From the IMG/VR virus record IMGVR_UViG_3300045970_000382, positions 32,001 through 96,000 of that record: a stretch of 64,000 nt of DNA; one strand, given 5' to 3'. Position 1 is the first letter of the stretch; each line of letters opens with the position of its first letter. The notes under the pieces are model-generated. The model saw only the letters and a list, made by a program, of their open reading frames with translations. It did not search any database and had not been told where the DNA came from. The stretch is from a virus. The translations under genes and the position numbers were made by a program. Positions 7,733 through 53,133 of the stretch are shown here, in pieces.

Positions 7733-9942
7733 TGGCTATTGAAGACCTTGCGGTCACTTATACAGTTTCTGCCACTTTAACTTTTTCTTTTGAAAGAGCT
7801 AAGATTATTCCTCAATTAATTGAAGGGTATACTAGTTCAGAATTTGTTTTCAATCCTTATTCTGATAGATTTGATCCTTGTGTAAATTACTACCATAGCT
7901 ATGGTATTGATCCAATAAGTGTTAATCTTACTGGTTTAGGACATTTAATTTATGTAGGTTATAATACAGAACTTTTTCAAGAGGAATTAACTTTTGATGG
8001 TTCTTCTGTAGCTTCTTTATCTCAAATACCTATAAGTAATGTGCTTATGGGTGTTGAGAGTCGTTATTTTGAAAAAATAACAGAAACATTTAATATGGGT
8101 GAAATCACTTATACTGCATCCAGTTTTTCTCCTGTATTAAAATATAATTCTATAGCTAATGAAATAAGTGTTTCTGACAATCCAGATGTTTTAGTAAAAT
8201 ATTATGGAAAGATTGTTGTAAAATACAATGTTCATAAAAATACATATAAAGTTTCTTTTAAAGGTATTCCATGTTATGATTTTGCTGGTTACGTTCCAAC
8301 AACCAGTCAAATGGGTTCATCTACTTTACCTTCAGGAAGTGGAAATAGTGGAGTTACAGTTACTAATGCCAGTTATTTTTCTGGTGGGACAAGTTATGTG
8401 ACACAAGATAATGTTATTACTTATACTACACAACTAACTCCAAATGATCTCATATTGACAAATGAGAATTATACTCTTGCAGCTATCTTTTTAACAGGTA
8501 TATCTACTATATCAGGAAAAAGAAATCAGAATTGTTGTGCTAGACCGACTTATGCGGGTGGTGTTGTAACAGGTGTTTCTGGAGATAATAATGAGGCTTT
8601 TGGTTGTACTACTGTTGTAAGTCTTTATGGGGATAATCCTGATTCAGTTTCTGATAAAAATAATAATGCAAGTGTAGGATATATGGGTTACTCTAAAGAA
8701 GGAGTTATTGAGACTTTAGAATTTAATGGATCTACATCAGTATCTTTAAAATATATTCCTATTGGTATCCCTAGTATTATAGAAAAATCTGATTTTGAAA
8801 GTATCGGAACTTATGCTAATGGTAGTGGTACATCCAATGTTCCACATAGTGGACTTGGATATAATCCATTTACTAATTCTTATGAAATAATTCCAACATC
8901 AGGTATAAGTAATGCTCAATTTTTTGGAACTATGGTTATTGGTTATGAGAGTGAAAGATATGATTATGCAGTAACTTTTAGCCAAAATAATTGCCCTGAA
9001 AATACAGATACTGAAGCTGAAAGGAAAAGAAAAGAAGATTTATCTAAAGCATTTCTTGTTATTACTTGGGGTCCTACTCATAAAACATCGCTGACTGTAA
9101 GTAGAGACAGTTCTTGTTGCCCTAAACAAAAACCAGGAAAATCAATAGAATCATATACAGTTAAAGTAGAACATGCATCTTTTTGTAATTCTTTTAAATC
9201 TAAAAAAGAAGTTTCACAAAGTGCATTAACAGGTTATACAGCTAGAGTAGATATAACAGATTATATTTTAGTACATAATTTTGGTGAATATGATTTTGAT
9301 TTAGATGCTTATACAATAGAAGATGGAACTTTTGGTAAAGCTAAACAAGATTCTGGTGGAGAATCTTCAGTAGGTGAAGTTGCAAAAGCACTGGATATTT
9401 CTTTTTCAAAGGTTTTTAGAAAAGAAGTTTTAATAAGACAACAATTATCTTTAAAAGAATCTAGTACGGCAACTTTAGATGGAATACCAAAACAACCCAA
9501 TTGGAAAGAAATTGTTCCATTAAAATCTATTCTTCCACAAAAATATGAACTCTATGTTTGTTTTGGTGTAAAAACTGAAGAAGTATATACAGGAGAGTAC
9601 AATTATTCTACACACACTTTTAATATTACTGGAGTCAAACAACTAAAAGCTAATGAAGTTTGTATCGTTAATTCTTTAAATATAGAAATGTTAGTATCTG
9701 GAGTTATAGAAGTTTCGTATTATACAACTATCTGTATTTATGAGATAATGTATACTTTAGGTTCTTCTAATCCAGCACCTAGTGTAACAGAATCAAGATA
9801 TAGAATTAGTTTTGTAAGTGACGATATTGTTTTAAATGGAGAATGTAAGTCTGATATAAAATCTATAAATGTGGTCAGTAAGAAAAAACTGAATAAAAGT
9901 TTTAAAGAATTTTTTGATTCATGTAAGACATGTAATCCTTGA
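7732..9942 (+). CDS. Putative tail-tip protein with three internal beta-sandwich-like repeats
   Basis: 736 aa, coupled to the upstream gene; three E.L.F.G..S.SL..IP...G...V.Y units. Confidence 0.5.
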   Translation: MAIEDLAVTYTVSATLTFSFERAKIIPQLIEGYTSSEFVFNPYSDRFDPCVNYYHSYGIDPISVNLTGLGHLIYVGYNTELFQEELTFDGSSVASLSQIPISNVLMGVESRYFEKITETFNMGEITYTASSFSPVLKYNSIANEISVSDNPDVLVKYYGKIVVKYNVHKNTYKVSFKGIPCYDFAGYVPTTSQMGSSTLPSGSGNSGVTVTNASYFSGGTSYVTQDNVITYTTQLTPNDLILTNENYTLAAIFLTGISTISGKRNQNCCARPTYAGGVVTGVSGDNNEAFGCTTVVSLYGDNPDSVSDKNNNASVGYMGYSKEGVIETLEFNGSTSVSLKYIPIGIPSIIEKSDFESIGTYANGSGTSNVPHSGLGYNPFTNSYEIIPTSGISNAQFFGTMVIGYESERYDYAVTFSQNNCPENTDTEAERKRKEDLSKAFLVITWGPTHKTSLTVSRDSSCCPKQKPGKSIESYTVKVEHASFCNSFKSKKEVSQSALTGYTARVDITDYILVHNFGEYDFDLDAYTIEDGTFGKAKQDSGGESSVGEVAKALDISFSKVFRKEVLIRQQLSLKESSTATLDGIPKQPNWKEIVPLKSILPQKYELYVCFGVKTEEVYTGEYNYSTHTFNITGVKQLKANEVCIVNSLNIEMLVSGVIEVSYYTTICIYEIMYTLGSSNPAPSVTESRYRISFVSDDIVLNGECKSDIKSINVVSKKKLNKSFKEFFDSCKTCNP

Positions 9943-15433: not shown

Positions 15434-16612
15434 ATGAGTGGAACCACCATTGTCACACTAAGATCTACAGATACAGGAGCACCACGATTATCTGGTACAG
15501 CAGGAGATATAATTGCTTTATTTGATGCCTGTCTTATCAATGGCTATAACAGTAAAACAGTTCTAAGTATGGTTAGAACTAATCAGACTGTTACTGTCTA
15601 TTTTGCTACTGCACATAATCTTGCAGGAGATGGGGTTACTAAAGTTTTAATATCGGGAGCAGATCAAGTTGAATATAACGGAATATTTAAAATAAGTAAT
15701 ATCCAGGCTTCATCTTTTGATATTACGGTGACAGGGTCACCTTTGTCTCCCGCTACTGGGACTACTATTACATCTAAAGTGGCTCCAGTAGGTTGGTCTA
15801 AGGCTTTTACTGGAACCAATTTAGGTGTGTACAGAAGTTTAGAAAGTACTGCCACCAAATTATATCTTCGTATTGATGATACGGGTACTTTATCTTGTAG
15901 AGCCCGTGGTTTTGAAACCATGTCTGATGTGAATAATGGCAGTGGTTTGTTTCCTACTGATTTACAATTATCGGGTGGTTTGTTTATTCAAAAATCTAAT
16001 AGCGCTTCTACTGCTTCACGGCCTTGGATTTTAGTAGGCGATGGGTTTGAGTTTTTCTTTTTTAGTGCAGCGCACGGAAGTTATCCAACTTTATTTTATT
16101 CTTTTCATTTTGGTGATCCAGCATCGGAAATGACCAGTGATCCGTATGGTTGTTTGATTTATGGTGGTAATGCAGATGATACTGGTCAGGCCCCAGCCTT
16201 TTACTGTGGTGTTGCTCCTCAATCTATAACAACTTCTTTAGCTGCCCAGGCAGGTCATTATTACGCTAGGATTTATAATCAACTAGGTGGTAGTGTAGGA
16301 GCTTCTAAATTAGGTTCAAGTGGTTTAGGTGGAACTACAATAGGATATGGTGGTATTTTAACTTATCCTGCACAACATAATAACGGTTTATATATTGCTC
16401 CTATTGTCGTATCAGACACGTATGTCATACGAGGTCAATTGAAAGGACTTTACCAACCATTACATAGAACTCCTTTAGGAAATTGGATACTTGTAGATGT
16501 GAGCTTATCTCCAATAAATAGAAGACTTTATTCTATAGGTACATCTGTAGGAACTCAAGGTAATATTCTTACAGGTGAAGTCCATGTTGACATTGATGGT
16601 CCATGGCGGTAA
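15434..16612 (+). CDS. Virion adaptor/fibre protein, family A copy 2
   Basis: LRSTDTGAPRLSGTAG; close paralog of 17795. Confidence 0.7.
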   Translation: MSGTTIVTLRSTDTGAPRLSGTAGDIIALFDACLINGYNSKTVLSMVRTNQTVTVYFATAHNLAGDGVTKVLISGADQVEYNGIFKISNIQASSFDITVTGSPLSPATGTTITSKVAPVGWSKAFTGTNLGVYRSLESTATKLYLRIDDTGTLSCRARGFETMSDVNNGSGLFPTDLQLSGGLFIQKSNSASTASRPWILVGDGFEFFFFSAAHGSYPTLFYSFHFGDPASEMTSDPYGCLIYGGNADDTGQAPAFYCGVAPQSITTSLAAQAGHYYARIYNQLGGSVGASKLGSSGLGGTTIGYGGILTYPAQHNNGLYIAPIVVSDTYVIRGQLKGLYQPLHRTPLGNWILVDVSLSPINRRLYSIGTSVGTQGNILTGEVHVDIDGPWR

Positions 16613-16615
16613 TAC

Positions 16616-17782
16616 ATGTCCGATTCCTATTATGATAATGTGGTTTTGCAATTATTATGTACAGGTATTAATAATTCTACTACGTTTATAGATACTTCTA
16701 AATTTAATAGATCTGTAACAAGAGTTGGTTCTACTATTATTTCAACAGTTAAATCTAAGGATTGGAATGGTTCTAGTGCTTATTTTGATGGTAATATAGG
16801 TTATTTACAATGTGATACATCTACTGATTTTAATTGGGGAGCAGGTGCTTTTACTATTGAGATGTGGGTACTTGCGACAGGGACAGGTATAGGTGGTACT
16901 CTATATAGTGATAGTCTTGAAGGCAATGTTGCAGCTAATAGAGCTAATAGAACCATTTTAATGTTTAGTAATGGGAGTTTTATGGCTGAAATAGGTAATG
17001 CTTGGGTTGGATGTACTGCTGTAAATCCATTTGTTTGGAACCATGTGGCAATATCAGGGACGGGTAATACTTATAGATTATTTGTTAATGGAGTTTATCA
17101 AACTTATGGAGCTACAGGAGGTACTACTCTAGCCGCACAAGCAGGTCGTCCTGTAATAGGTATTTCCGGTGATCTTACTTCTGATAGATTTATAGGATAT
17201 ATAGACGACATTCGTATCACTAAAGGTATATCTAGATACCCCACAACAGCAAACTTTATTCCTCCATATCCTTTTTTTGCTGATTCTGCAGGTCTACCAA
17301 CTTATGGAAAAAACATTCAGGGTCTTTATAGTAAATCTGCTTTTCAATGGTGTCTATTACCTACTTATGAGAAAATGATAGATATTCTTTTAGATAAGAC
17401 TGCTTTTCAATGGTGTCTATTACCTCAGCAAGGTCATTATAATAATAATATTTTAATGTCTTCATTTTTACAATATTCTGGATTGCCTAAAAAAATAACA
17501 GTAATACCAGAATGTTATGATGCAAGACAATCTAATGCAATTTTTTGGTGGGGTGGTACTGGATCACTTTCAGGAACAGTTAGAATAGGCCCTACTGCTT
17601 GTAAACGTAAAATTAGATTGTATGAATCTGTTACTAATATTTTATGTCAAGAAGCATGGTCTGATACTGATGGTGGTTTTGCTTTTACAAATCTTAATAA
17701 AACTTGTAAATTCACCGTTACGGGCACAGACTATAACAATGTTTACAACGACATTATTATAGGAAATTTAACTCCAATTTAA
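16616..17782 (+). CDS. LamG/ConA-like domain protein with family B C-terminal module
   Basis: SAYFDG, FTIEMW, WNHVA, GYIDDIRITKG; C-terminal RKIRLY...WS..DGGFAF.NL...YND. Confidence 0.75.
   Translation: MSDSYYDNVVLQLLCTGINNSTTFIDTSKFNRSVTRVGSTIISTVKSKDWNGSSAYFDGNIGYLQCDTSTDFNWGAGAFTIEMWVLATGTGIGGTLYSDSLEGNVAANRANRTILMFSNGSFMAEIGNAWVGCTAVNPFVWNHVAISGTGNTYRLFVNGVYQTYGATGGTTLAAQAGRPVIGISGDLTSDRFIGYIDDIRITKGISRYPTTANFIPPYPFFADSAGLPTYGKNIQGLYSKSAFQWCLLPTYEKMIDILLDKTAFQWCLLPQQGHYNNNILMSSFLQYSGLPKKITVIPECYDARQSNAIFWWGGTGSLSGTVRIGPTACKRKIRLYESVTNILCQEAWSDTDGGFAFTNLNKTCKFTVTGTDYNNVYNDIIIGNLTPI
17337..17425 (+). repeat. 26-bp direct repeat, 63-bp period (AFQWCLLP linker)
   Basis: ctgcttttcaatggtgtctattacct at 17337 and 17400. 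Confidence 0.85.
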
Positions 17783-17794
17783 AGGAAAACTATC

Positions 17795-18955
17795 ATGAGC
17801 GGAACTCAAGTTATTCTATTAAGATCAACAGATACAGATGCTCCACGATTGTCGGGGACTGCTGGAGATCTTGTCAATCTTTTTTATAAGTGTTTAGATT
17901 CAACACAAGGCTACAACATTTGTGCTTTAACTAGTATAACTAGAGTTGGTTCTGTAGCAACAGCCACGTTTGCAGGTCATGGTTATGCAGCAGATGGTCT
18001 TACTAAAATACAGATAAGTGGTGCAACTCCAAGTGATTATAATGGACTTAAAACTATTTCAAATGTATCTGCAAATACCTTTGATTTTGCAGTAGCAGGA
18101 ACTCCTGTAGATGCAACTGTTCCAGGTTCTAGTTGTGTTGCTCCATTAGGATGGACACGTTCATTTACTGGAACTAATCTAGCTGCTTTTAGAAGTAATG
18201 AAGTTACTGGAACAAGACTATATCTTCGTATAGATGATACAGGGACGACTACCGCAAGGGTTCGTGGATGGGAATCTATGTCAGATATTAATACAGGAAC
18301 AGGTTTATTTCCAACAGAAGCACAATTGTCTGGTGGGTTGTGGATTAATAAATCAGATCTTGCCAGTACAGCGGCAAGAACTTGGATTTTAGTAGGCGAT
18401 GGTTTTGAATTTTACTTCTTCTATGCGACTAACATAACAACATATCCAAATGTTTACAGACAATTTCATTTTGGTGATCCAGCATCTGAAATGGCAAGTG
18501 ATCCTTATGGATGTTTGATATATGGAGACATTGCATCTGCTTTAGCTGCTCCAGAATTATCCCAAACAACCTTTCAAGTAGGTACTACAAGTGCGGCAGC
18601 ACAGGCAGGGCATTATTACGCTAGATCATATACTCAAACAGGTGCTTCTGTTGCAGGTGGTAAATTTGGAAATTACACTTTAGGTACTGCAAATATTGGA
18701 GTGGGTAATATCCTGTATCCATCACAAGCTAATAATGGATTGTACATATCACCTATTTTTACAGTAGATGTTTCTGTTATACGGGGACAATTAAAAGGCA
18801 TCTATCAACCTTGCCATACCAGACCATTAGGTAATCTCACGTTTCTTGCTGCTAATGTTTCTCCTATTTCACGAAGATTGTTATCTATAGCAACAGCTTA
18901 TTCTGGAGCTACTCCTGGTGAAACCCATATAGATATAGATGGCCCATGGAGATAA
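17795..18955 (+). CDS. Virion adaptor/fibre protein, family A copy 3
   Basis: LRSTDTDAPRLSGTAG; ends HIDIDGPWR like 15434. Confidence 0.7.
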   Translation: MSGTQVILLRSTDTDAPRLSGTAGDLVNLFYKCLDSTQGYNICALTSITRVGSVATATFAGHGYAADGLTKIQISGATPSDYNGLKTISNVSANTFDFAVAGTPVDATVPGSSCVAPLGWTRSFTGTNLAAFRSNEVTGTRLYLRIDDTGTTTARVRGWESMSDINTGTGLFPTEAQLSGGLWINKSDLASTAARTWILVGDGFEFYFFYATNITTYPNVYRQFHFGDPASEMASDPYGCLIYGDIASALAAPELSQTTFQVGTTSAAAQAGHYYARSYTQTGASVAGGKFGNYTLGTANIGVGNILYPSQANNGLYISPIFTVDVSVIRGQLKGIYQPCHTRPLGNLTFLAANVSPISRRLLSIATAYSGATPGETHIDIDGPWR

Positions 18956-43767: not shown

Positions 43768-44421
43768 ATGACCACTGTAGTAAAAACTAATAGTTCAGGA
43801 TATTCGGTCACACCAGGTGTGGATAATATCTTTGAATTTAAAACCAATGATATACTAGCTCTCACAATCAATGCTTCTCAAGTCGTTTCCTTAGTAAATC
43901 CATTACCTGTAAATTCGGGAGGTATTGGTTTTGCTGCTCCAGGTATGGTTGGTAACATTTTAAGAAGCAATGGCACTATCTGGGAATCAGTAGCACCTAC
44001 ACCTACTATTACCGATGACACTACCACCAATGTTCTTCAATATTTGGGTATGTCCAGAGCCACGTCAGGGGCTTGGATCACTGATTATATTTGTACCTCT
44101 AAGTTGAATTTTAATCCGTTTACTGGTGTATTAACTTCCTTTTTATTCAATGCTTCTTCTGACGTGACTCTGAAAGAAAATATTACACCTATTGTAAACG
44201 GTTTGTCTACTATAGAAAGTCTTAATGGTGTTAGTTTCAATTGGAAAGATAGTCAGTTACCATCCATAGGTTTAATTGCTCAGGAAGTTGAAAAGGTTTG
44301 TCCCATATTGGTATCGGAAGAAGATGGTTTAAAGTCTTTGAACTACAATGGCATCATTGGCTTGTTAGTAGAAGCGGTTAAGGAATTGTCGGCACGGGTT
44401 AAAGAATTGGAGAACGGATAA
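43768..44421 (+). CDS. Short tail fibre with peptidase S74 intramolecular chaperone
   Basis: SD..LKENI..I...L..I..L.GV.F.W......GLIAQEVE...P.LV......NY.G....L.EA.KEL; ATG 43768 preferred over track start 43708. Confidence 0.85.
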   Translation: MTTVVKTNSSGYSVTPGVDNIFEFKTNDILALTINASQVVSLVNPLPVNSGGIGFAAPGMVGNILRSNGTIWESVAPTPTITDDTTTNVLQYLGMSRATSGAWITDYICTSKLNFNPFTGVLTSFLFNASSDVTLKENITPIVNGLSTIESLNGVSFNWKDSQLPSIGLIAQEVEKVCPILVSEEDGLKSLNYNGIIGLLVEAVKELSARVKELENG

Positions 44422-45581
44422 TGGCCTCTAACTATACTGAAGATGACCCTGTTTTTGGCACTGTAGACTTGGATGACGAGTATATAACTGATGCTTGGTT
44501 GGTTGACAGATATGTGGGTAATACATTATGGTCTTTTGGATATAATAATAATGGACAATTAGGTAACGGTACAATTATTGATTATTCTAGCCCTATTCAG
44601 ATAGGTTCACTAACTAACTGGAAACAAGTTGCTTGTGAATATAGACATACTTTAGCTATTAAAACTGACGGCACTTTATGGGCTTGTGGATATAATGATT
44701 ATGGGCAATTAGGTAACGGTACAGCTATTTATTATTCTAGTCCTATTCAAGTAGGTAGCTTAACTAATTGGAAACAAGTTGCTGGTGGATATAAAAATAC
44801 TTTAGCTATTAAAACAGATAATACATTATGGGCTTGTGGATATAATTATTATGGACAATTAGGCAACGATACAACTATTGCTTATTCAAGTCCAATCCAA
44901 ATTGGTAGTCTGACTAACTGGAAACAAGTTGCTTGTGGGCGCTATCACACTGTAGCCATTAAGACAGACGGCACTTTATGGAGTTGTGGATATAATTATT
45001 ATGCTCAATTAGGTAATGGTACAGTTATTAAATATTCTAGTCCTATCCAAATTGGTTCATTGACTGATTGGAAACAAGTAGTTAGTGAGCAATACTCTAC
45101 ATTAGCTATTAAGACAAATGGAACTTTATGGGCTTTTGGATATAATGGTAATGGACAATTAGGCAATGGTACAACCATTAATTACTCTAGTCCTATTCAA
45201 ATTGGTTCATTGACTAATTGGAAACAAGTTGCTGGTGGATATTTTTTTACTGTAGCCATTAAGACAGATGGAACTTTATGGGGGTTTGGTACTAATTCTT
45301 ATGGACAATTAGGCAATAATACACGTATTCATTATTCCAGCCCCATTCAAGTAGGTAGCTTAACTGACTGGAAACAAGTTGCTTGTGGAAATAGTACTTT
45401 AGCTATTAAAACTGACGGCACTTTATGGGCTTTTGGATATAATGATTATGGACAGTTAGGTAATAGCACATCTATTAATTATTCCAGCCCTATCCAAATA
45501 AGCAGCCTGACTAATTGGAAACAAGTTGCTTGTGGAGATAAACATACTGTAGCAGTCACATTTAAAGATATAGGAGATTAA
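44421..45581 (+). CDS. RCC1-repeat 7-bladed beta-propeller protein 1
   Basis: Seven 50-aa LW..G.N..GQLG...SSPIQ.G.LT.WKQV.....T.AIKTDGT repeats. Confidence 0.9.
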   Translation: MASNYTEDDPVFGTVDLDDEYITDAWLVDRYVGNTLWSFGYNNNGQLGNGTIIDYSSPIQIGSLTNWKQVACEYRHTLAIKTDGTLWACGYNDYGQLGNGTAIYYSSPIQVGSLTNWKQVAGGYKNTLAIKTDNTLWACGYNYYGQLGNDTTIAYSSPIQIGSLTNWKQVACGRYHTVAIKTDGTLWSCGYNYYAQLGNGTVIKYSSPIQIGSLTDWKQVVSEQYSTLAIKTNGTLWAFGYNGNGQLGNGTTINYSSPIQIGSLTNWKQVAGGYFFTVAIKTDGTLWGFGTNSYGQLGNNTRIHYSSPIQVGSLTDWKQVACGNSTLAIKTDGTLWAFGYNDYGQLGNSTSINYSSPIQISSLTNWKQVACGDKHTVAVTFKDIGD

Positions 45582-45583
45582 AA

Positions 45584-46240
45584 ATGCAATATTTACTGAC
45601 CGAAAACAAATCTGTACTGCTAGGCCCGATTGATTGGAAACCAAGATTCATACAATCAGAGCTAGATGATTTAGAGGTAGACTTTAAAATACCTATCGCA
45701 GAACCAGGTTATTTGGCTATTAATGAAACCTTGGAAATTATTCCGGTAATCACGTCTTATAAGCCAGCCGTGGATTTCAATTTTGAACATTTGGCAGGGC
45801 CATTCTATACCTTCACCAACAATGGGGCACATGAAGTCTATAGCTCCTATCGTTTGTCGTTAGACATTATCAAGGAGAATTTACATGCCATTGCTGCAAT
45901 GGCAAGGTTCAGAAAGGAAGAACTGGGTACTAAAACCACTATCCAGAACTTGGAAGTGACTGTAGACACCACCCGAAGTAGCAGAAACATCTTCGTACAA
46001 AAATACTTATTGATGAGTGAGTCTGATACTGTGTTGTTAAAGTTTGCTGAAGGTTGGTTTACGGTGACTAAAGCAGAATTAGGTCAAGTTGTGCAAGCGG
46101 GTAATAATTATATCCAAGCTCAATTCGATGCTGAAAAGGTTAAGTTGGGTGAGATAGATGCTCATGACACTTTTGAAGGTCTGCAAGCTGTAGTTATTAT
46201 ACCACTACCTGAAGTACCAGAAGCTCCTTTAGGAGGCTGA
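45584..46240 (+). CDS. DUF4376-like fibre-associated protein
   Basis: R..KE..G......VDT.R.SR...K...GW......EL........Y.QAQFD.E. Confidence 0.6.
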   Translation: MQYLLTENKSVLLGPIDWKPRFIQSELDDLEVDFKIPIAEPGYLAINETLEIIPVITSYKPAVDFNFEHLAGPFYTFTNNGAHEVYSSYRLSLDIIKENLHAIAAMARFRKEELGTKTTIQNLEVTVDTTRSSRNIFVQKYLLMSESDTVLLKFAEGWFTVTKAELGQVVQAGNNYIQAQFDAEKVKLGEIDAHDTFEGLQAVVIIPLPEVPEAPLGG

Positions 46241-46241
46241 T

Positions 46242-47423
46242 ATGCTGACCGGATTTAAGACTATAGACCCTAATACAGGTAATGCTAATGATTTGGGTGA
46301 ACGGTATCTGACTAAAGACTATATGCTCGATGCTTATCCTAACTTGATTCCAGGTATGAACCCTAGTGGGTTGTGGAGTTTTGGATATAATGGTTTTGGG
46401 CAATTAGGTAACGATACACGTATTAATTATTCTTCTCCTATTCAAGTAGGTAGTCTGACTAACTGGAAACAAGTTACTTGTGGGCGTTACCATAGTGCAG
46501 CTATTAAAACAGACGGCACTTTATGGGCTTTTGGCGATAATTATAGTGGACAATTAGGTAACGGTACAACCATTAAATATTCCAGCCCTATTCAAATTGG
46601 TAGTCTGACTAATTGGAAACAAGTTGCTACTGGTTTTTATCATACTGTAGCCATTAAAACTGATGGAACTTTATGGGCTTATGGAAATAGTGGTTATGGA
46701 CAATTAGGCAACGGTACAACTAACAGTTATTCCAGTCCTATTCAAATTGGTAGCTTAACCAACTGGAAACAAGTTGCTTGTGGGTATAGATATTCTTTAG
46801 CTATTAAAACTGATGGCACTTTATGGGCTTTTGGCGATAATTATAGTGGACAATTAGGTAATGGTACAACCATTAAATATTCCAGCCCTATTCAAGTAGG
46901 TAGTTTAACTAATTGGAAACAAGTTGCTACTGGTTTTTATCATAGTGCAGCTATTAAAACAGATGGGACTTTATGGGGTTGTGGATATAATGGTTTTGGT
47001 CAATTAGGCAATGGTACAACTGACAGTTATTCCAGTCCAATTCAAATTGGTAGTTTGACTAATTGGAAACAAGTTGCTACTGGTTTTTATCATATTGTAG
47101 CCATTAAAACTGATGGGACTTTATGGAGTTTTGGTAAGAATTGGCAAGGACAATTAGGAAATAGTACAATTGACAATTATTCCAGTCCCATTCAAATTAG
47201 TAGCTTAACTAATTGGAAACAAGTTGCTTGTGGAATTGATAATACTGTAGCCATTAAAACAGATGGGACTTTATGGGGTTGTGGATATAATGGTTTTGGT
47301 CAATTAGGCAATGGTACAACTGACAGTTATTCCAGTCCCATTCAAATAGGAAACTTAACTAACTGGAAATTTATATATGCTGGTCGGAATAATAATTTTG
47401 TTATTTCAGCTTTATATTTATAG
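46242..47423 (+). CDS. RCC1-repeat 7-bladed beta-propeller protein 2
   Basis: Seven 50-aa repeats. Confidence 0.9.
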   Translation: MLTGFKTIDPNTGNANDLGERYLTKDYMLDAYPNLIPGMNPSGLWSFGYNGFGQLGNDTRINYSSPIQVGSLTNWKQVTCGRYHSAAIKTDGTLWAFGDNYSGQLGNGTTIKYSSPIQIGSLTNWKQVATGFYHTVAIKTDGTLWAYGNSGYGQLGNGTTNSYSSPIQIGSLTNWKQVACGYRYSLAIKTDGTLWAFGDNYSGQLGNGTTIKYSSPIQVGSLTNWKQVATGFYHSAAIKTDGTLWGCGYNGFGQLGNGTTDSYSSPIQIGSLTNWKQVATGFYHIVAIKTDGTLWSFGKNWQGQLGNSTIDNYSSPIQISSLTNWKQVACGIDNTVAIKTDGTLWGCGYNGFGQLGNGTTDSYSSPIQIGNLTNWKFIYAGRNNNFVISALYL

Positions 47424-47434
47424 GTAGGTGAATT

Positions 47435-48568
47435 ATGGCAACGTCAGGTTTTCAAAGTAATTCAGCTACATTAGAAGGTATTTTTGTTAAAAAGAATATT
47501 TTCCTAGAATCTAATTTATGGGCTTTTGGCGATAATTATAGTGGACAATTAGGTAATGGTACAACCATTAAATATTCCAGCCCTATTCAAGTAGGTAGCT
47601 TAACTAATTGGAAACAAGTTGCTTGTAGATGTACATATACCTTAGCCATTAAAACAGACGGCACTTTATGGGCTTTTGGCGATAATTATAGTGGACAATT
47701 AGGTAATGGTACAACCATTAAATATTCCAGCCCTATTCAAATTGGTAGTCTGACTAATTGGAAACAAGTTGCTACTGGTTTTTATCATAGTGCAGCTATT
47801 AAAACAGATGGAACTTTATGGGGGTTTGGTACTAATTCTTATGGACAATTAGGCAATAATACAACTATTGATTACTCTAGTCCTATTCAAGTAGGCAGTT
47901 TAACGGATTGGAAACAAGTTGCTTGTGGATGTACATATACCTTAGCCATTAAAACAGACGGCACTTTATGGGCTTTTGGCGATAATTATAGTGGACAATT
48001 AGGTAACGGTACAACCATTGGTTACTCCAGCCCTATTCAAGTAGGTAGCTTAACTAATTGGAAACAAGTTGCTTGTAGAGATAAATATACTGTAGCTATT
48101 AAAACTGATGGCACTTTATGGGCTTGTGGATATAATGGTTTTGGGCAATTAGGTAACGATACACGTATTAATTATTCTTCTCCTATTCAAGTAGGTAGTC
48201 TGACTAACTGGAAACAAGTTGCTTGTGGGAGCTATCATACTTTAGCTATTAAAACAGACGGCACTTTATGGGCTTATGGAAATAGTGGTTATGGACAATT
48301 AGGCAACGGTACAACCATTAGATATTCCAGCCCTATTCAAATTGGTAGTCTGACTAATTGGAAACAAGTTGCTTGTGGATATAAACATACTGTAGCCATT
48401 AAGACGGATGGGGCATTATGGACTTGTGGATATAATGGTTTGGGACAATTAGGCAACGGTACAAGAATTAATTACTCCAGCCCCATTCAAATTGGTAGTT
48501 TAACTAACTGGAAACAAGTTGCTGGTGGGAGCTATCATACTTTAGCCATTAAGACAGATGACTTATAA
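47435..48568 (+). CDS. RCC1-repeat 7-bladed beta-propeller protein 3
   Basis: Seven 50-aa repeats. Confidence 0.9.
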   Translation: MATSGFQSNSATLEGIFVKKNIFLESNLWAFGDNYSGQLGNGTTIKYSSPIQVGSLTNWKQVACRCTYTLAIKTDGTLWAFGDNYSGQLGNGTTIKYSSPIQIGSLTNWKQVATGFYHSAAIKTDGTLWGFGTNSYGQLGNNTTIDYSSPIQVGSLTDWKQVACGCTYTLAIKTDGTLWAFGDNYSGQLGNGTTIGYSSPIQVGSLTNWKQVACRDKYTVAIKTDGTLWACGYNGFGQLGNDTRINYSSPIQVGSLTNWKQVACGSYHTLAIKTDGTLWAYGNSGYGQLGNGTTIRYSSPIQIGSLTNWKQVACGYKHTVAIKTDGALWTCGYNGLGQLGNGTRINYSSPIQIGSLTNWKQVAGGSYHTLAIKTDDL

Positions 48569-48577
48569 CAGGATTTT

Positions 48578-49351
48578 ATGAAAAAATACATATTCACGGC
48601 AGGACTACCTAGAGCTGGAACTACGCTCTTAGGTACTATTTTAAAACAAAACCCACGGTTTGAAGCCTCCATATCAGGGCCACTGGCACGGTTTGTCAGA
48701 GCTGTTATTCAAGAGTCATCTTCCCAAGGCGGATATCGCCATGAATGTCCACCTCCATTACGAAAACGGCTTATCCAAGGGCTGTTTGAGAATTATTACA
48801 GCGACCCCACCAAAGATGTTGCGTTCAATCATAATCGCGGTTGGGGTTTGTTGCTACCTACTATTAAAGACCTTTACCCCGATTGTAAGTTGATTCTATG
48901 TGTGAGAGACATGGGCTGGGTGTTGGATTCATTTGAAACTTTAGTAAGAAAGAATCCTTATTCGTTTTCCTCCATGTTCTCTTTAGATGAAAATATCAAT
49001 GTTTATACCCGTTGTGAAACTCTATTAAGACCAGATAGGACATTAGGTTTTGCTTACAATGCAGTTAAGCAAGCCATCACTTCCGAACATAATGATTCTG
49101 TTTTTATACTTGAATATGACAAGCTGGCACAAGTCCCAGAACTGATGCTTAAAGCCCTGTATAACTTTATTGAAGAACCTTACTTTGAGCATGATTTTAA
49201 TGATGTTGAGGCTTCTTATGATGAATTCGATGAAGATGTACAGTTACCCGGACTACATACTACTCGAAAAAAAGTGGAGTTTATTGAACGTAAGACTATA
49301 ATTCCACCTGATATATGGGAGCGTGTCAAAAACATGGAAGTGTGGAAATGA
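48578..49351 (+). CDS. Sulfotransferase family protein
   Basis: PAPS-binding GLPRAGTTLL..IL.QNP; K.I.CVRD...VL.SFE. Confidence 0.85.
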   Translation: MKKYIFTAGLPRAGTTLLGTILKQNPRFEASISGPLARFVRAVIQESSSQGGYRHECPPPLRKRLIQGLFENYYSDPTKDVAFNHNRGWGLLLPTIKDLYPDCKLILCVRDMGWVLDSFETLVRKNPYSFSSMFSLDENINVYTRCETLLRPDRTLGFAYNAVKQAITSEHNDSVFILEYDKLAQVPELMLKALYNFIEEPYFEHDFNDVEASYDEFDEDVQLPGLHTTRKKVEFIERKTIIPPDIWERVKNMEVWK

Positions 49352-50079
49352 TTTACAATGTCATACCTGGAACGTTTAATAATTATGGAATAAGAAATGG
49401 AGATATGATTGCCATTATCAATTTCCTGCAATGGTTTAGAATGCAGGAAGACGACCCTACTATTAAACTCCACATAAAATCTAATGTCATAGTTAAAACT
49501 GACTATTGCAAACAGTTCTATAAATTGTTATGTGAACTGACCGACTGTTTTTCTCTGACAGAAGGCTATCAAAATCTACCTTATCATGAACTGATGCTTT
49601 GGGACTTCAGGGACATTTGTGGGGATGTAGTATCCATTCATAATCCTCATATCCAAAAGAAAAAGATTGTAGTGTTTCCGGTCTATGATTCAGATTACCA
49701 TGTTTATAGGAATTGGAATATAAGTCTACTTGAATCCATACTAGAAGAGTACACTGAAAAATATCCCGATTATGAAAAACTGCTCTGTGTTAAAGACCTA
49801 CCTGATTTAGATATAAAAATGTCAGGGTTTTCCATCAGCACCCACTTTATGCAAAACATAAAACATATTATGGAAGCGGAGATATTCATTGGTGGTGATA
49901 CCGGGGTTTCACATTTCGCTTCAGCACTTAACCTTGGTCCTAAAGAACTAGTGTACTGTTACAATGGCAGGAGCACGGTACATACTTTGCCTTTTCATTT
50001 ATTAAGTGGTAAAGGCACGTTAAGAAAATACTGGTTAAATTGCTATAAAACAACCTATAAAGGACAGCTAGTGTTATGA
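49348..50079 (+). CDS. GT-B / GT9-like glycosyltransferase
   Basis: R.GD.I at the N-terminus; I..AE.FIGGDTG.SH.A.AL; ATGA overlap start 49348. Confidence 0.6.
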   Translation: MIYNVIPGTFNNYGIRNGDMIAIINFLQWFRMQEDDPTIKLHIKSNVIVKTDYCKQFYKLLCELTDCFSLTEGYQNLPYHELMLWDFRDICGDVVSIHNPHIQKKKIVVFPVYDSDYHVYRNWNISLLESILEEYTEKYPDYEKLLCVKDLPDLDIKMSGFSISTHFMQNIKHIMEAEIFIGGDTGVSHFASALNLGPKELVYCYNGRSTVHTLPFHLLSGKGTLRKYWLNCYKTTYKGQLVL

Positions 50080-50663
50080 AGATATTGTTAGGTAGCGGTT
50101 ATAAAAAAGAAGAAGGTTTTGTTACTATAGATGACGACCCTATAGTGAATCCAGATTATCTGATAAATCTGGATGATGTTAATATAAAACTACCTTTTGC
50201 GGATAATTCAGTTAGTGAAATCAGGGCTTATCATATTTTGGAGCATATTGGTGAAGGGTTTATACCTCTAATTCAAGAGATGTATAGAATATCTGAACAT
50301 AATGCAATATTGGATATTAAAGTACCCCACCATAACCACGAAGTCTATTATGGAGATCCTACCCATAAACGACCTATCACAGTCAATGGCATGAAATTAT
50401 TTGACCAAGACTACAATCGGGAACATATAGCGGAGCATAATGCCAGTTCGGGATTAGGTATCCGGTATAAGGTTGATTTCAGAATGCTCTGGTATAATTT
50501 TGATTATGACCCTTTTTATATGGATATGATTAAAGGGATTGAACAACGCCAAGCAGCAGGAACTTTATCCAAAGAAGAAGAATTTGCTTTTATGCGTTTA
50601 ATGCGTGAGGCTAATAATGTGGCAATGAACACTAACATTAAGATGCTGGCTATCAAGGAGTAA
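50076..50663 (+). CDS. Class I SAM-dependent methyltransferase-like protein
   Basis: LLGSG....GF..ID...LPF.DNSV.EI.A.H.LEH...E.YR......I.VP...DPTH. Confidence 0.75.
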   Translation: MKILLGSGYKKEEGFVTIDDDPIVNPDYLINLDDVNIKLPFADNSVSEIRAYHILEHIGEGFIPLIQEMYRISEHNAILDIKVPHHNHEVYYGDPTHKRPITVNGMKLFDQDYNREHIAEHNASSGLGIRYKVDFRMLWYNFDYDPFYMDMIKGIEQRQAAGTLSKEEEFAFMRLMREANNVAMNTNIKMLAIKE

Positions 50664-50667
50664 TGCA

Positions 50668-52065
50668 GTGGCACAACCTATAAAGTATGACAGTAATGAC
50701 CCATTATCTTTTATTATAGAATATTTAGAAAAAGCTAATGAGGATGAACTAGCTAATAAGGTACTAGATGTATTTGCCAGAAACTCCAATCAATTGGAGC
50801 AGTTTAACTTGTTGGCTAAACTGTATTTGGATTTACGGAACGGTGACAAGGCCGAAGAGTTTTCCCTAAAAGTGTTGTCCATGGTGGCTGACCCGCAAGC
50901 TCAATATAATGCTAGGTCTAACATCGCCAAGATGTATAACAACATGAACAAACCTGATAAGTCTTTACAGCACTCCAGCCTGAATAGGATTATTACTCCA
51001 GATGACCCAGATACCCTGTTAGAATCAGTATTTTCGTTATACTTATTAGGTCAAAAAGACGATGCTGAAAAGATACTGAGAGATTTGAAAGCTAGGGAAG
51101 ATACTTTAAGCGAACACCATCAAACTATTGTTGATTTTAACTTGGGTACGTATGACATGGAGCAAGGTCACTTCCTAAAAGGGTTGGCTGGGTTTTTAAT
51201 TAATATCAAAAAATTAGGCTTATGGTTCTCCAACAGGGAACTACCCTACAAGTATTGGAATGGCGGTATATATCCGGGTAGAACTTTAATCTTGTTTATG
51301 GAAGGCGGAGGCATTGGTGACGAGTTCATATCTGTGAGACACATGGATGACCTTAAAAGACTTGGGTTTAGACCTATCTATTATACCTTTAGACCGGACT
51401 TATATAAGATTTTTAACCGTTGTGGCTATGAAACGGTATTAAATCTTGATGATGTACCTAAAGATTCCTTATGGACTTACGCCATGCAAGTGCCATTATG
51501 GATAAAGAAGACTCCTGAAACTATTATCAGGGAAAATTATCTATATCCATCTGATGAAGCCAGATCTAAATGGCAGTTTATAAAAGATTCTAACAAGTTT
51601 AAGATTGGTGTACGTTGGCAAGGTAATGCTAAAAATGAACGTGACTTGCATCGTAAGGTTCCTCTTGACGGGATTATGGACACTTTAAAATCAGTATATA
51701 AGAACAAAGATGTAGAATATTATTCGTTACAGATTGGTGATGGTGAGGAAGAGATTGTTAATTACCTTGAATTGATAAACGTATCTGATAAAATAGAATC
51801 TTATGATGATACTTTAGCATTATTGGAAAACTTAGATTTGGTTGTATCTTCGTGTACTTCGGTACTCCATGCCTCAGCTATAGTGGGTACTGAAACCATT
51901 GGTTTGATTCCAATATCAGCTTATTTCACATGGTTAAGTCCCACTCCTAATAGACCTATTTATACCAGCATCTGGTATGGCGACAATTTAAGAATTTTTA
52001 AACAGACTACTATCAATAGTTGGGAAACTCCTTTTAATCAGATAAAGGAATATCTTAATGGATGA
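50668..52065 (+). CDS. TPR-domain plus GT9-like glycosyltransferase
   Basis: Helical TPR N-terminus; W.G.......EGG.GD; KIG.RWQG; YSLQ; DT.A...NLDLV.S.CTSV.H. Confidence 0.8.
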   Translation: MAQPIKYDSNDPLSFIIEYLEKANEDELANKVLDVFARNSNQLEQFNLLAKLYLDLRNGDKAEEFSLKVLSMVADPQAQYNARSNIAKMYNNMNKPDKSLQHSSLNRIITPDDPDTLLESVFSLYLLGQKDDAEKILRDLKAREDTLSEHHQTIVDFNLGTYDMEQGHFLKGLAGFLINIKKLGLWFSNRELPYKYWNGGIYPGRTLILFMEGGGIGDEFISVRHMDDLKRLGFRPIYYTFRPDLYKIFNRCGYETVLNLDDVPKDSLWTYAMQVPLWIKKTPETIIRENYLYPSDEARSKWQFIKDSNKFKIGVRWQGNAKNERDLHRKVPLDGIMDTLKSVYKNKDVEYYSLQIGDGEEEIVNYLELINVSDKIESYDDTLALLENLDLVVSSCTSVLHASAIVGTETIGLIPISAYFTWLSPTPNRPIYTSIWYGDNLRIFKQTTINSWETPFNQIKEYLNG

Positions 52066-52744
52066 CTTTTATACTTTTATTGTATTATCCACTATCAATA
52101 CTGATACAGGTGTTCTTGACAGATTGGTTAGATTTGAGCAGACTATTAACACTTTAAATTCAATAAGGTTGAAAGTACCCAATGCAAAGATAATCTTTTT
52201 AGATAACTCTATAGAACCCTTGACACCTGAACAACTTAAACAGATATGGGCTAAAGTAGATATTTGTAAGTATGCTTTCCAAACTTTACCCAACCTTTAT
52301 TTTAATCAGAGAGGTCTGAAAGGTGATGGGGAAATTTGTATGATGTACGAAGCCATGCAAATACTTAAAATTTCTGAATTGCTTGGAAAACGTGTTTTTA
52401 AGTTATCTGGCAGATATTTTTTAAACGAGCATTTTAATATAGATGCTTATAATGATCTACAAGGTAAATATGTAGCCAAGATTAACGCTTGGGACATTAC
52501 TAAAGATAATTGGGTTACTAGAGAACAAGTTTATTATTTTGAAACAAGATTGTGGTCATTCTGTGGTACATTATTTGATGAATTTTATAATCAACTACCT
52601 GTCATTTTTAATTACATGATGAATGTGGATAATAATCTTGAGAAAGCTTATTTAAAATTATTAGATCCAGATAAGATAGTACCTATGGATGTTATCGGAG
52701 TTAGTGGTTATTCGGCTGATACTGGGGAGATAAAGATAGAATGA
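52058..52744 (+). CDS. Hypothetical, possibly glycosyltransferase-related protein
   Basis: R..QT..T..SIR..VP....I..DNS; K..GE; R.FKLSGRY.L. Confidence 0.55.
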   Translation: MDDFYTFIVLSTINTDTGVLDRLVRFEQTINTLNSIRLKVPNAKIIFLDNSIEPLTPEQLKQIWAKVDICKYAFQTLPNLYFNQRGLKGDGEICMMYEAMQILKISELLGKRVFKLSGRYFLNEHFNIDAYNDLQGKYVAKINAWDITKDNWVTREQVYYFETRLWSFCGTLFDEFYNQLPVIFNYMMNVDNNLEKAYLKLLDPDKIVPMDVIGVSGYSADTGEIKIE

Positions 52745-53133
52745 AGATATTGATTTATGGATTATCCGGTTCAGGAAAATCTACGTTAGCTAAGAAATTA
52801 GCTGATAGATTAAATATCCCAATTATTAATGGAGATGAAGTTAGGATGCAGTTTAATGACTGGGACTTTTCCATTGATGGAAGATTGAGACAAGCAATTC
52901 GTATAAAGGATATAAGTGAGAGTTATGATTTAGTTATTTTAGATTTTATTTGTCCGTTATCTGAATCTAGAGATACACTTAATCCTGATATAACTATTTT
53001 GATGGATACAATTGAAGAATGCCAATATGAAGATACTAATTCTATTTTTGAATTTGGTAATCCTGATATAATTATTTCAAAATTTGATTATGATGTAGAT
53101 AGAATTTTAGAAAGGTTATTAGAAAATTCATGA
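52741..53133 (+). CDS. cysC: Adenylyl-sulfate (APS) kinase-like P-loop protein
   Basis: GLSGSGKSTLA, NGDEVR, DFS..GR.RQ, DFICP; shorter than cellular CysC. Confidence 0.7.
   Translation: MKILIYGLSGSGKSTLAKKLADRLNIPIINGDEVRMQFNDWDFSIDGRLRQAIRIKDISESYDLVILDFICPLSESRDTLNPDITILMDTIEECQYEDTNSIFEFGNPDIIISKFDYDVDRILERLLENS

Follow-up and report, generated by a model that had tools for sequence, protein, structure and literature searches.

Concerted evolution of propeller repeats has been described in the fungus Podospora anserina, in the WD40 genes of the NWD/HNWD group that includes het-d and het-e (Paoletti et al. 2007, PMC1805685; Chevanne et al. 2010, PMC2873952). The repeats of ten genes of this family evolve in concert and are exchanged within and between loci, and four selected positions lie on the interaction face (PMC1805685). 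Among phage proteins, hypervariable segments reshuffled by recombination are known from the T-even gp38/gp37 adhesins (Trojet et al. 2011, PMC3157838; also Tetart 1996 and 1998, as cited in that paper). RCC1-like genes are common in large phages, where they occur in multiple copies without assigned function; phAPEC6 has eleven (PMC7247149). Here we describe three such genes, RCC1-A, RCC1-B, and RCC1-C, in a 64,000-nucleotide stretch of viral DNA (the window), which comprises bases 32001-96000 of the 156,223-bp IMG/VR virus record IMGVR_UViG_3300045970_000382, rated complete (100%) by CheckV. They belong to a late tail-fibre module with the order S74 fibre, RCC1-A, DUF4376-like gene, RCC1-B, RCC1-C, sulfotransferase. 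The 21 propeller blades that they encode probably evolve in concert by ordinary recombination, as an evolutionary regime and not as a programmed device for diversification in each generation.

All three proteins contain seven stretches that match Pfam RCC1 (expectation values, E, of 1e-86 to 1e-93), and each scores 272-312 bits against the RLD domain (PF25390), for which the cut-off is 150. Tandem Repeats Finder detects a period of 150 with 6.6-7.0 copies and 78-80% matches. When blade units are anchored on the GQLGN motif, 21 units of 150 bp are obtained, seven per gene, with starts at 44526+150n, 46371+150n, and 47516+150n; unit A6 is 147 bp long (49 residues), and the others span 50 residues. 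The proteins are bare propellers preceded by an N-terminal peptide of 27-43 aa. The AlphaFold2 prediction for RCC1-C has a mean predicted local distance difference test value (pLDDT) of 95.2 and a predicted template-modelling (TM) score of 0.91, and Foldseek aligns it with UVR8, HERC1/2, RPGR, and RCC1 at TM 0.84-0.88; sequence matches to propellers of the UVR8/HERC/RPGR/RCC1 group reach E 8e-57. By sequence and predicted fold, RCC1-A, -B, and -C are thus three paralogous seven-bladed RCC1-like β-propellers. Guanine-nucleotide exchange on a small GTPase, the activity of RCC1 proper, is not expected in a bacterial virus. Inter-blade identity within the three proteins is 70-76% at the amino acid level, at the high end of the top database matches but not unique among them (median 48%, maximum 79%).

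The blades share a framework interrupted by three variable sites. A single residue occurs in at least 19 of the 21 units at 26 of the 50 codon positions (excluding Trp), and variation is concentrated at codons 3-9, 15-19, and 37-43, where the loop residues are rich in Tyr, Asn, Ser, and Gly. Site 3 corresponds to the G-x-x-H-T motif, which reads GWRHT in UVR8. A majority consensus of 77 homologues, drawn from many metagenomic sources, shows this framework again, with variation at the same three sites; a constant framework with variable loops is therefore a property of this RCC1 subfamily.

Related phages provide evidence of exchange among blades. A search with the DUF4376-like gene yielded 14 related viral loci in four lineages. 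RCC1 genes flank the DUF4376-like gene on both sides in all 14, with three to six RCC1 genes per phage, and the order fibre-RCC1-DUF4376-RCC1 is conserved in six lineages. Among the RCC1 genes of the window and its relatives that were split into blades, 17 of 18 have exactly seven; in the remaining one, gp335 of Synechococcus phage S-SRM01, six were detected. This isolated and cultured freshwater cyanophage (L039, NC_070963.1 222328-231556) carries a distal fibre gene, an RCC1 gene, a DUF4376-like gene (gp336, 33% identical to the window protein, E 1e-26), and a second RCC1 gene; further on, its last RCC1 gene is followed by a sulfotransferase gene (gp344-gp345). A megablast of the locus against phage records returned only S-SRM01, as a 70% partial match, and look-ups of the exact RCC1-B and RCC1-C proteins found no further contig. 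In another lineage (L017-L024), six consecutive RCC1 genes surround one DUF4376-like gene, and each has an N-terminal extension of 90-130 aa; its contigs, recovered from eight metagenomes, measure 55-329 kb, and the lineage may represent a jumbo phage.

Genes A, B, and C each have a short N-terminal segment that aligns with its counterpart in gene 1, 2, or 3, respectively, of the relatives (over 35 aa for RCC1-A); together with synteny, this indicates that the three RCC1 genes are orthologous across phages. Their blades nevertheless cluster according to genome. When the window blades and those of four related lineages, 126 in all, were placed in one tree, the genome label changed 8 times, against a minimum of 4 and a mean of 72 after shuffling, whereas the blade-position label changed 86 times. 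All 21 window blades fall on one side of a single branch (support 82), and every one of them finds its best match in its own genome (identity 0.71-0.98, versus 0.54-0.72 elsewhere). Mean blade identity is 0.54-0.74 within genomes and 0.45-0.58 between them, independent of gene or blade position; within S-SRM01 it is 0.67. The within-genome value exceeds the between-genome values in five of six lineages, the exception being L012, whose 0.54 lies below two of them. Each genome also has private framework residues that are fixed in nearly all of its blades across genes: position 14 is N in 21 of 21 window blades but L in 21 of 21 blades of L014, and position 20 is Y in all 21 window blades but R or K in other genomes. 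Grouping by genome in spite of gene orthology is the mark of concerted evolution, and the sequences indicate that tracts have been copied both within and between genes.

Shared DNA blocks within the window point the same way. The longest exact block measures 94 bp and is common to blades B1 and C5; others of 86, 84, 82, 81, and 79 bp occur, and the shared exact blocks range from 50 to 94 bp. The unit with the DNYS motif appears five times and that with TNSY twice, each in more than one gene (table below). Blade C2, read in segments of 30 nt, is a mosaic: nucleotides 1-30 match B2, B4, C1, and C4; 31-60 match B4 and C1; 61-90 match B2 and C6; and 91-120 match B2, B4, and B5. The three variable sites are found in new combinations across blades. 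The pairwise homoplasy index (PHI) statistic was reached by none of 2000 permutations. When column order was permuted, the longest shared tract was significant at p<=0.005 for about 16 of the 210 pairs of units, against an expectation of about 1; the global p-value of this test, dominated by near-identical pairs, is uninformative.

It could be argued that no exchange took place at all, and that an old, idealised repeat under structural constraint acquired its shared blocks by convergence. The framework is indeed the consensus of the 77 homologues, and Nei-Gojobori estimates over all unit pairs give a framework dS (synonymous substitutions per site) of 0.77 and a dN/dS (nonsynonymous to synonymous ratio) of 0.09. 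With so high a dS, most of the framework identity reflects purifying selection on the protein and not recent copying; under this selection the four strands are kept, as are the (V/I)GSLTN and TDGT loops. Constraint of this kind leaves much unaccounted for, however: residues specific to a genome are fixed across all of its genes, blades cluster by genome despite the orthology of the genes, and exact DNA blocks are shared with different partners along a single blade. Position-specific codon identity is 0.70, versus 0.48 expected from the codon usage of the genome, so that some homogenisation at the DNA level has been added to purifying selection. Together with the conversion tract described next, these observations make an origin without exchange highly improbable.

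One micro gene conversion was caught directly. Over 12.6 kb, two assemblies of one relative, L012 and L013, show only 3 differences, and these fall in a 17-bp stretch (8189-8205) of blade 2 of its third RCC1 gene: one change is N108D, at site 2, and the other two are synonymous. The L013 variant is an exact copy of blade 4, which lies 300 bp downstream, and the run of identity between the two blades is now about 68 bp. Over the full overlap of the two contigs (50,229 bp) there is one further difference, a contig-end artefact aside. This second tract is 79 bp long and contains 15 changes, mostly in third positions, between L045 (G001:C1:100489-100567) and L042 (G002:C1:49408-49486); it lies in a 548-aa open reading frame (ORF) that looks like a terminase on a reading of its motifs. 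No donor for it is present in the genome, which suggests import from another strain. What separates the L012 and L013 genomes is recombination tracts and not point mutations, at two sites of which the RCC1 locus is one.

What the preliminary description had read from the letters is confirmed by this analysis: the 21 repeats of about 150 bp, seven per gene; the near-invariant framework with variation at three sites; the positions of the five DNYS units, the two TNSY units, and the twin blocks of about 90 bp, of which the longest exact one is 94 bp; and the reassortment of the three sites, which the mosaic map bears out. Its proposal of recombination or gene conversion among blades is supported by PHI, the tract test, the genome-wise tree, the mosaic map, and the L012/L013 tract.

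What was proposed on that basis, an antibody-like repertoire generated within populations by dedicated, high-rate cassette shuffling, fares less well. Mosaic blades with three recombining sites, a micro-conversion that hits a variable loop, and loops rich in Tyr, Asn, Ser, and Gly speak for such a system. The pattern of framework and sites is, however, family-wide. The eight contigs of L017-L024, from eight metagenomes and with 6 RCC1 genes and 42 blades, are identical over 12.6 kb. The 50 kb compared in the near-identical genome pair contain one tract in RCC1 and another in the terminase-like ORF, so that RCC1 is not uniquely variable, and the Logan contigs of the two pond-metagenome runs in which the window stretch is present contain no variant letters. 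Framework dS is high and there is no reverse transcriptase. Nor are there silent donor copies: the genome has only 21 blades, all in three intact ORFs. Dedicated shuffling of this kind is therefore considered unlikely. Programmed cassette gene conversion of the vlsE or pilE/pilS type was rejected for the same lack of silent cassettes, no other RCC1 copy being found in the genome.

Because the window derives from a metagenomic viral contig, and because Logan contigs fragment in the arrays and show stray joints, it might be supposed that the mosaic arose from chimeric paths through a short-read repeat graph. The longest exact repeat is only 94 bp, however, and the three frames are intact, with exactly seven blades each. 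Logan pieces of 124-384 bp from the two runs match local junctions without differences (for example, 44910-45293 and 47309-47544), and the stray joints, whose short sides measure 21-34 nt, carry no information. An isolated phage genome, S-SRM01, has the matching architecture, and the locus of a relative is identical in eight assemblies. An assembly artefact is consequently very improbable.

The composition of the variable codons raises a further alternative, adenine mutagenesis like that of diversity-generating retroelements (DGRs), in which NNT and NNC variable codons would derive from AAY template codons. Between 44421 and 48568, the third base is T in 76% of variable codons and in 42% of framework codons. 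A share of 0.64 is already expected from an amino acid composition rich in Tyr, Asn, Asp, Phe, Cys, and Ser and from genome codon usage, which leaves a small excess. In the 156-kb record there is no RVT_1 match at E<=0.1, in agreement with the earlier statement that no reverse transcriptase is involved, and the genome holds no extra template copy. Mismatches between the closest pairs fall on A in 0-40% of cases, in line with base composition, and Lys, Arg, Gln, Glu, and Trp codons are present at the variable sites. A DGR, which would need a reverse transcriptase, a template repeat, and an adenine bias, was thus rejected, and a process of this type is exceedingly improbable.

General homologous recombination between 150-bp units that are 77-97% identical suffices to account for the exchange, and a RecA-like gene of the phage suffices for the chemistry. 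A RecA-family ORF (355 aa; Pfam RecA E 4.7e-37) lies at G000:C1:97003-97740 on the - strand, about 1 kb past the end of the window; RecT and ERF recombinases gave no match. The tracts copied by homologous recombination would range from tens of base pairs to roughly a whole blade, and the two blades involved could belong to one gene or to two. Such copying would give each phage lineage its own framework "flavour" and leave the blades mosaic, and it may passively recombine loop variants and so feed the evolution of host range.

The tail-fibre setting noted in the preliminary description, with an S74 chaperone fibre and a DUF4376-like gene, is present as described. The genes between 43.7 and 49.4 kb are all on the + strand and overlap or abut in operon-like fashion; the stop of the S74 fibre gene overlaps the start of RCC1-A at 44421. 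The fibre gene matches PHROG tail-fibre and baseplate families (E down to 9e-35), although close relatives of it were not found in IMG/VR. The DUF4376 match (PF14301) scores 27.5 bits over residues 97-195, against a gathering cut-off of 25; it is marginal, hence the term "DUF4376-like".

Table. Positions of the RCC1 genes, their neighbours, and the repeated blocks in the window.
Feature	Length	Position	Strand	Assignment and remarks
S74 fibre	237 aa	43708..44421	+	Pfam Peptidase_S74 E 2.6e-14, residues 151-201; C-terminal intramolecular chaperone domain
RCC1-A	386 aa	44421..45581	+	Pfam RCC1 E 5.8e-90, 7 stretches; blades A1-A7 = 44526-45572
DUF4376-like	218 aa	45584..46240	+	Pfam DUF4376 E 4.6e-6; PHROG 10508 "tail fiber protein"
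RCC1-B	393 aa	46242..47423	+	Pfam RCC1 E 2.4e-86; blades B1-B7 = 46371-47420
RCC1-C	377 aa	47435..48568	+	Pfam RCC1 E 8.4e-93; blades C1-C7 = 47516-48565
Sulfotransferase		48578..49351	+	Pfam Sulfotransfer_3 E 1.9e-13; first gene of downstream modification cassette
Longest exact block, blade B1	94 bp	46382..46475	+	Same as block in C5
Longest exact block, blade C5	94 bp	48127..48220	+	Same as block in B1
DNYS units		46521, 46821, 47516, 47666, 47966		Blades B2, B4, C1, C2, C4
TNSY units		45276, 47816		Blades A6, C3

The sulfotransferase gene and those that follow it (48578-53133) adjoin RCC1-C. In S-SRM01, too, sulfotransferase and glycosyltransferase genes come after the last RCC1 gene, and the link between propellers and modification cassette is thus conserved. 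Elsewhere in the window, at 15434-18955, are three consecutive genes (392, 388, and 386 aa) that resemble the RCC1 genes in size but do not belong to them; a Laminin_G_3 (ConA-like lectin) domain is present in the middle one, and the trio may be a second paralogous set of binding proteins.

The predicted structure suggests how framework and variable sites are disposed on the propeller. DSSP places strands of the RCC1-C model at unit positions 1-5, 20-25, 32-37, and 41-46. The long s1-s2 loop contains sites 1 and 2, and the s3-s4 hairpin constitutes site 3. In an antiparallel meander, alternate loops emerge on the same side, so that the s1-s2 and s3-s4 loops share one face. The three variable sites would then lie on one face, as had been anticipated, and the invariant (V/I)GSLTN and TDGT loops on the opposite one.

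The invariant face is a candidate docking surface. A complex model of RCC1-A with the DUF4376-like protein scored 0.63, whereas the highest score among three controls was 0.01. Among solved complexes 58 of 80 reach this mark, and among mismatched pairs 2 of 110; these counts apply only roughly here, because custom alignments were supplied for the modelling. At least 80% of contacts recur between runs, and the partner has a pLDDT of at least 84. Of the 22 contact residues of RCC1-A, 21 belong to the framework, the N-terminal junction, or the C-terminal tail, and one is a variable-site position; the framework contacts are the SLT(N/D)-K and TDG loops of blades 5-7. The model supports, but does not show, binding of RCC1-A to the DUF4376-like protein through the conserved face, and it makes the latter a candidate adaptor for the propellers. 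Modelled alone with AlphaFold2, the DUF4376-like protein is poorly predicted (pLDDT 59, and below 50 in the N-terminal 90 residues), and a search of the Protein Data Bank with this fold gave nothing below E 0.2, only weak prefoldin-like rows.

If these predictions hold, the conserved face would dock on the DUF4376-like protein and so tie the propellers to the fibre, and the variable face may bind a host-surface ligand. It is alternatively conceivable that the propellers are intracellular effectors or scaffolds, no part of the virion or of host recognition, and that the fibre neighbourhood is incidental. PHROG places RCC1 families under nucleotide metabolism, albeit by name only, and the authors of the phAPEC6 study raised the speculative possibility that the eleven RCC1-like proteins of this phage organise DNA (PMC7247149). 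The order fibre-RCC1-DUF4376-RCC1 is kept in six lineages, however; the genes are packed as in a single operon, overlapping or abutting; PHROG "tail protein" families include RCC1 repeats; and the complex model docks a protein of a tail-fibre family. An intracellular role thus appears unlikely, if somewhat less so than dedicated shuffling. A bolder proposal can be offered only tentatively, and we regard it as doubtful: in a freshwater phage clade that includes S-SRM01, the terminal host-binding units might be bare RCC1 propellers docked by their conserved face on a DUF4376-like adaptor at the fibre. The 21-42 blades distributed over three to six genes might then form a self-contained library, in which intragenomic gene conversion moves loop variants and offers a route, independent of reverse transcriptase, to new binding surfaces and shifts in host range.

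Several observations weigh against the view of blades in concerted exchange and of propellers with a selected, host-binding face. Recurring loop motifs under selection can inflate both PHI and the tract test. Exchange is mainly between genes B and C; gene A has one long shared block only, between A6 and C3, and keeps a weak positional signal with its ortholog in L014, the sole survival of this kind. The Logan contigs confirm the flanks and local pieces of the window but break inside the arrays, leaving its blade order unbridged. On the 16 variable codons dN/dS is 1.66, a circular figure, as these codons had been chosen for being variable; their dN of 0.56 is close to the overall dS of 0.61, and relaxed constraint fits as well as positive selection. 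The faces were assigned by strand topology alone, and a role in host binding is argued from gene neighbourhood and a model.

The locus, its relatives, and an isolated cyanophage together provide a concrete hypothesis for RCC1-like genes of phages, namely that their products are fibre-associated propellers that dock through one face and bind through the other, variable one. Because S-SRM01 can be cultured, the hypothesis is testable at the bench, and this phage is a ready experimental model.

Comparison with known systems places the locus among several partial counterparts. RCC1 matches occur in 85 phage records, in several of them in multiple places. ("RCC1" in a paper on Ostreococcus viruses denotes culture-collection strain numbers and not the protein.) Among phages with multiple RCC1 genes, including S-SRM01, BUCT-ZZ01, phAPEC6 with its eleven genes, and Clostridioides phages, S-SRM01 shares the module of the window; no analyses of blade exchange or function were found for the genes of these phages, and the S-SRM01 paper is silent on them. 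RCC1, UVR8, HERC1/2, and RPGR have the same seven-bladed fold (TM about 0.85), but the window blades are far more alike (70-76% at the amino acid level), and the propellers are bare, phage-encoded, and present in three linked copies. DGRs, too, produce hypervariable ligand-binding positions in phage tail proteins whose scaffold stays constant. In T-even gp38, as here, conserved motifs frame hypervariable segments, and recombination in the motifs shuffles the specificity determinants of a phage host-recognition module; that protein has an unrelated fold with a glycine-rich core, it is the product of a single gene, and exchange is mainly between phages and not among 21 internal repeats.

Of the systems described so far, the fungal NWD/het-d/het-e WD40 family comes closest. 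In both, paralogous propeller repeats evolve in concert, repeats are exchanged within and between loci, a few hypervariable positions lie on one face (as judged from strand topology in the phage), and no dedicated enzyme is involved. The two differ in fold (WD40 in the fungus, RCC1 here) and in repeat number, which is highly variable in the fungus and fixed at seven blades here. In the fungal genes, repeat-induced point mutation (RIP) adds mutations and repeat identity is much higher; they serve in allorecognition or as sensors of the NOD-like receptor (NLR) type, whereas the phage propellers are predicted parts of an appendage. The claim of an undescribed diversification system is therefore not upheld: a RecA-like gene would suffice, blade number does not vary, and the principle has been described (PMC1805685, PMC3157838). 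The RCC1 blade mosaic is real and of a known evolutionary kind, not a new molecular mechanism of diversification, and concerted evolution of propeller blades, known from fungal immune receptors, also operates in viruses.

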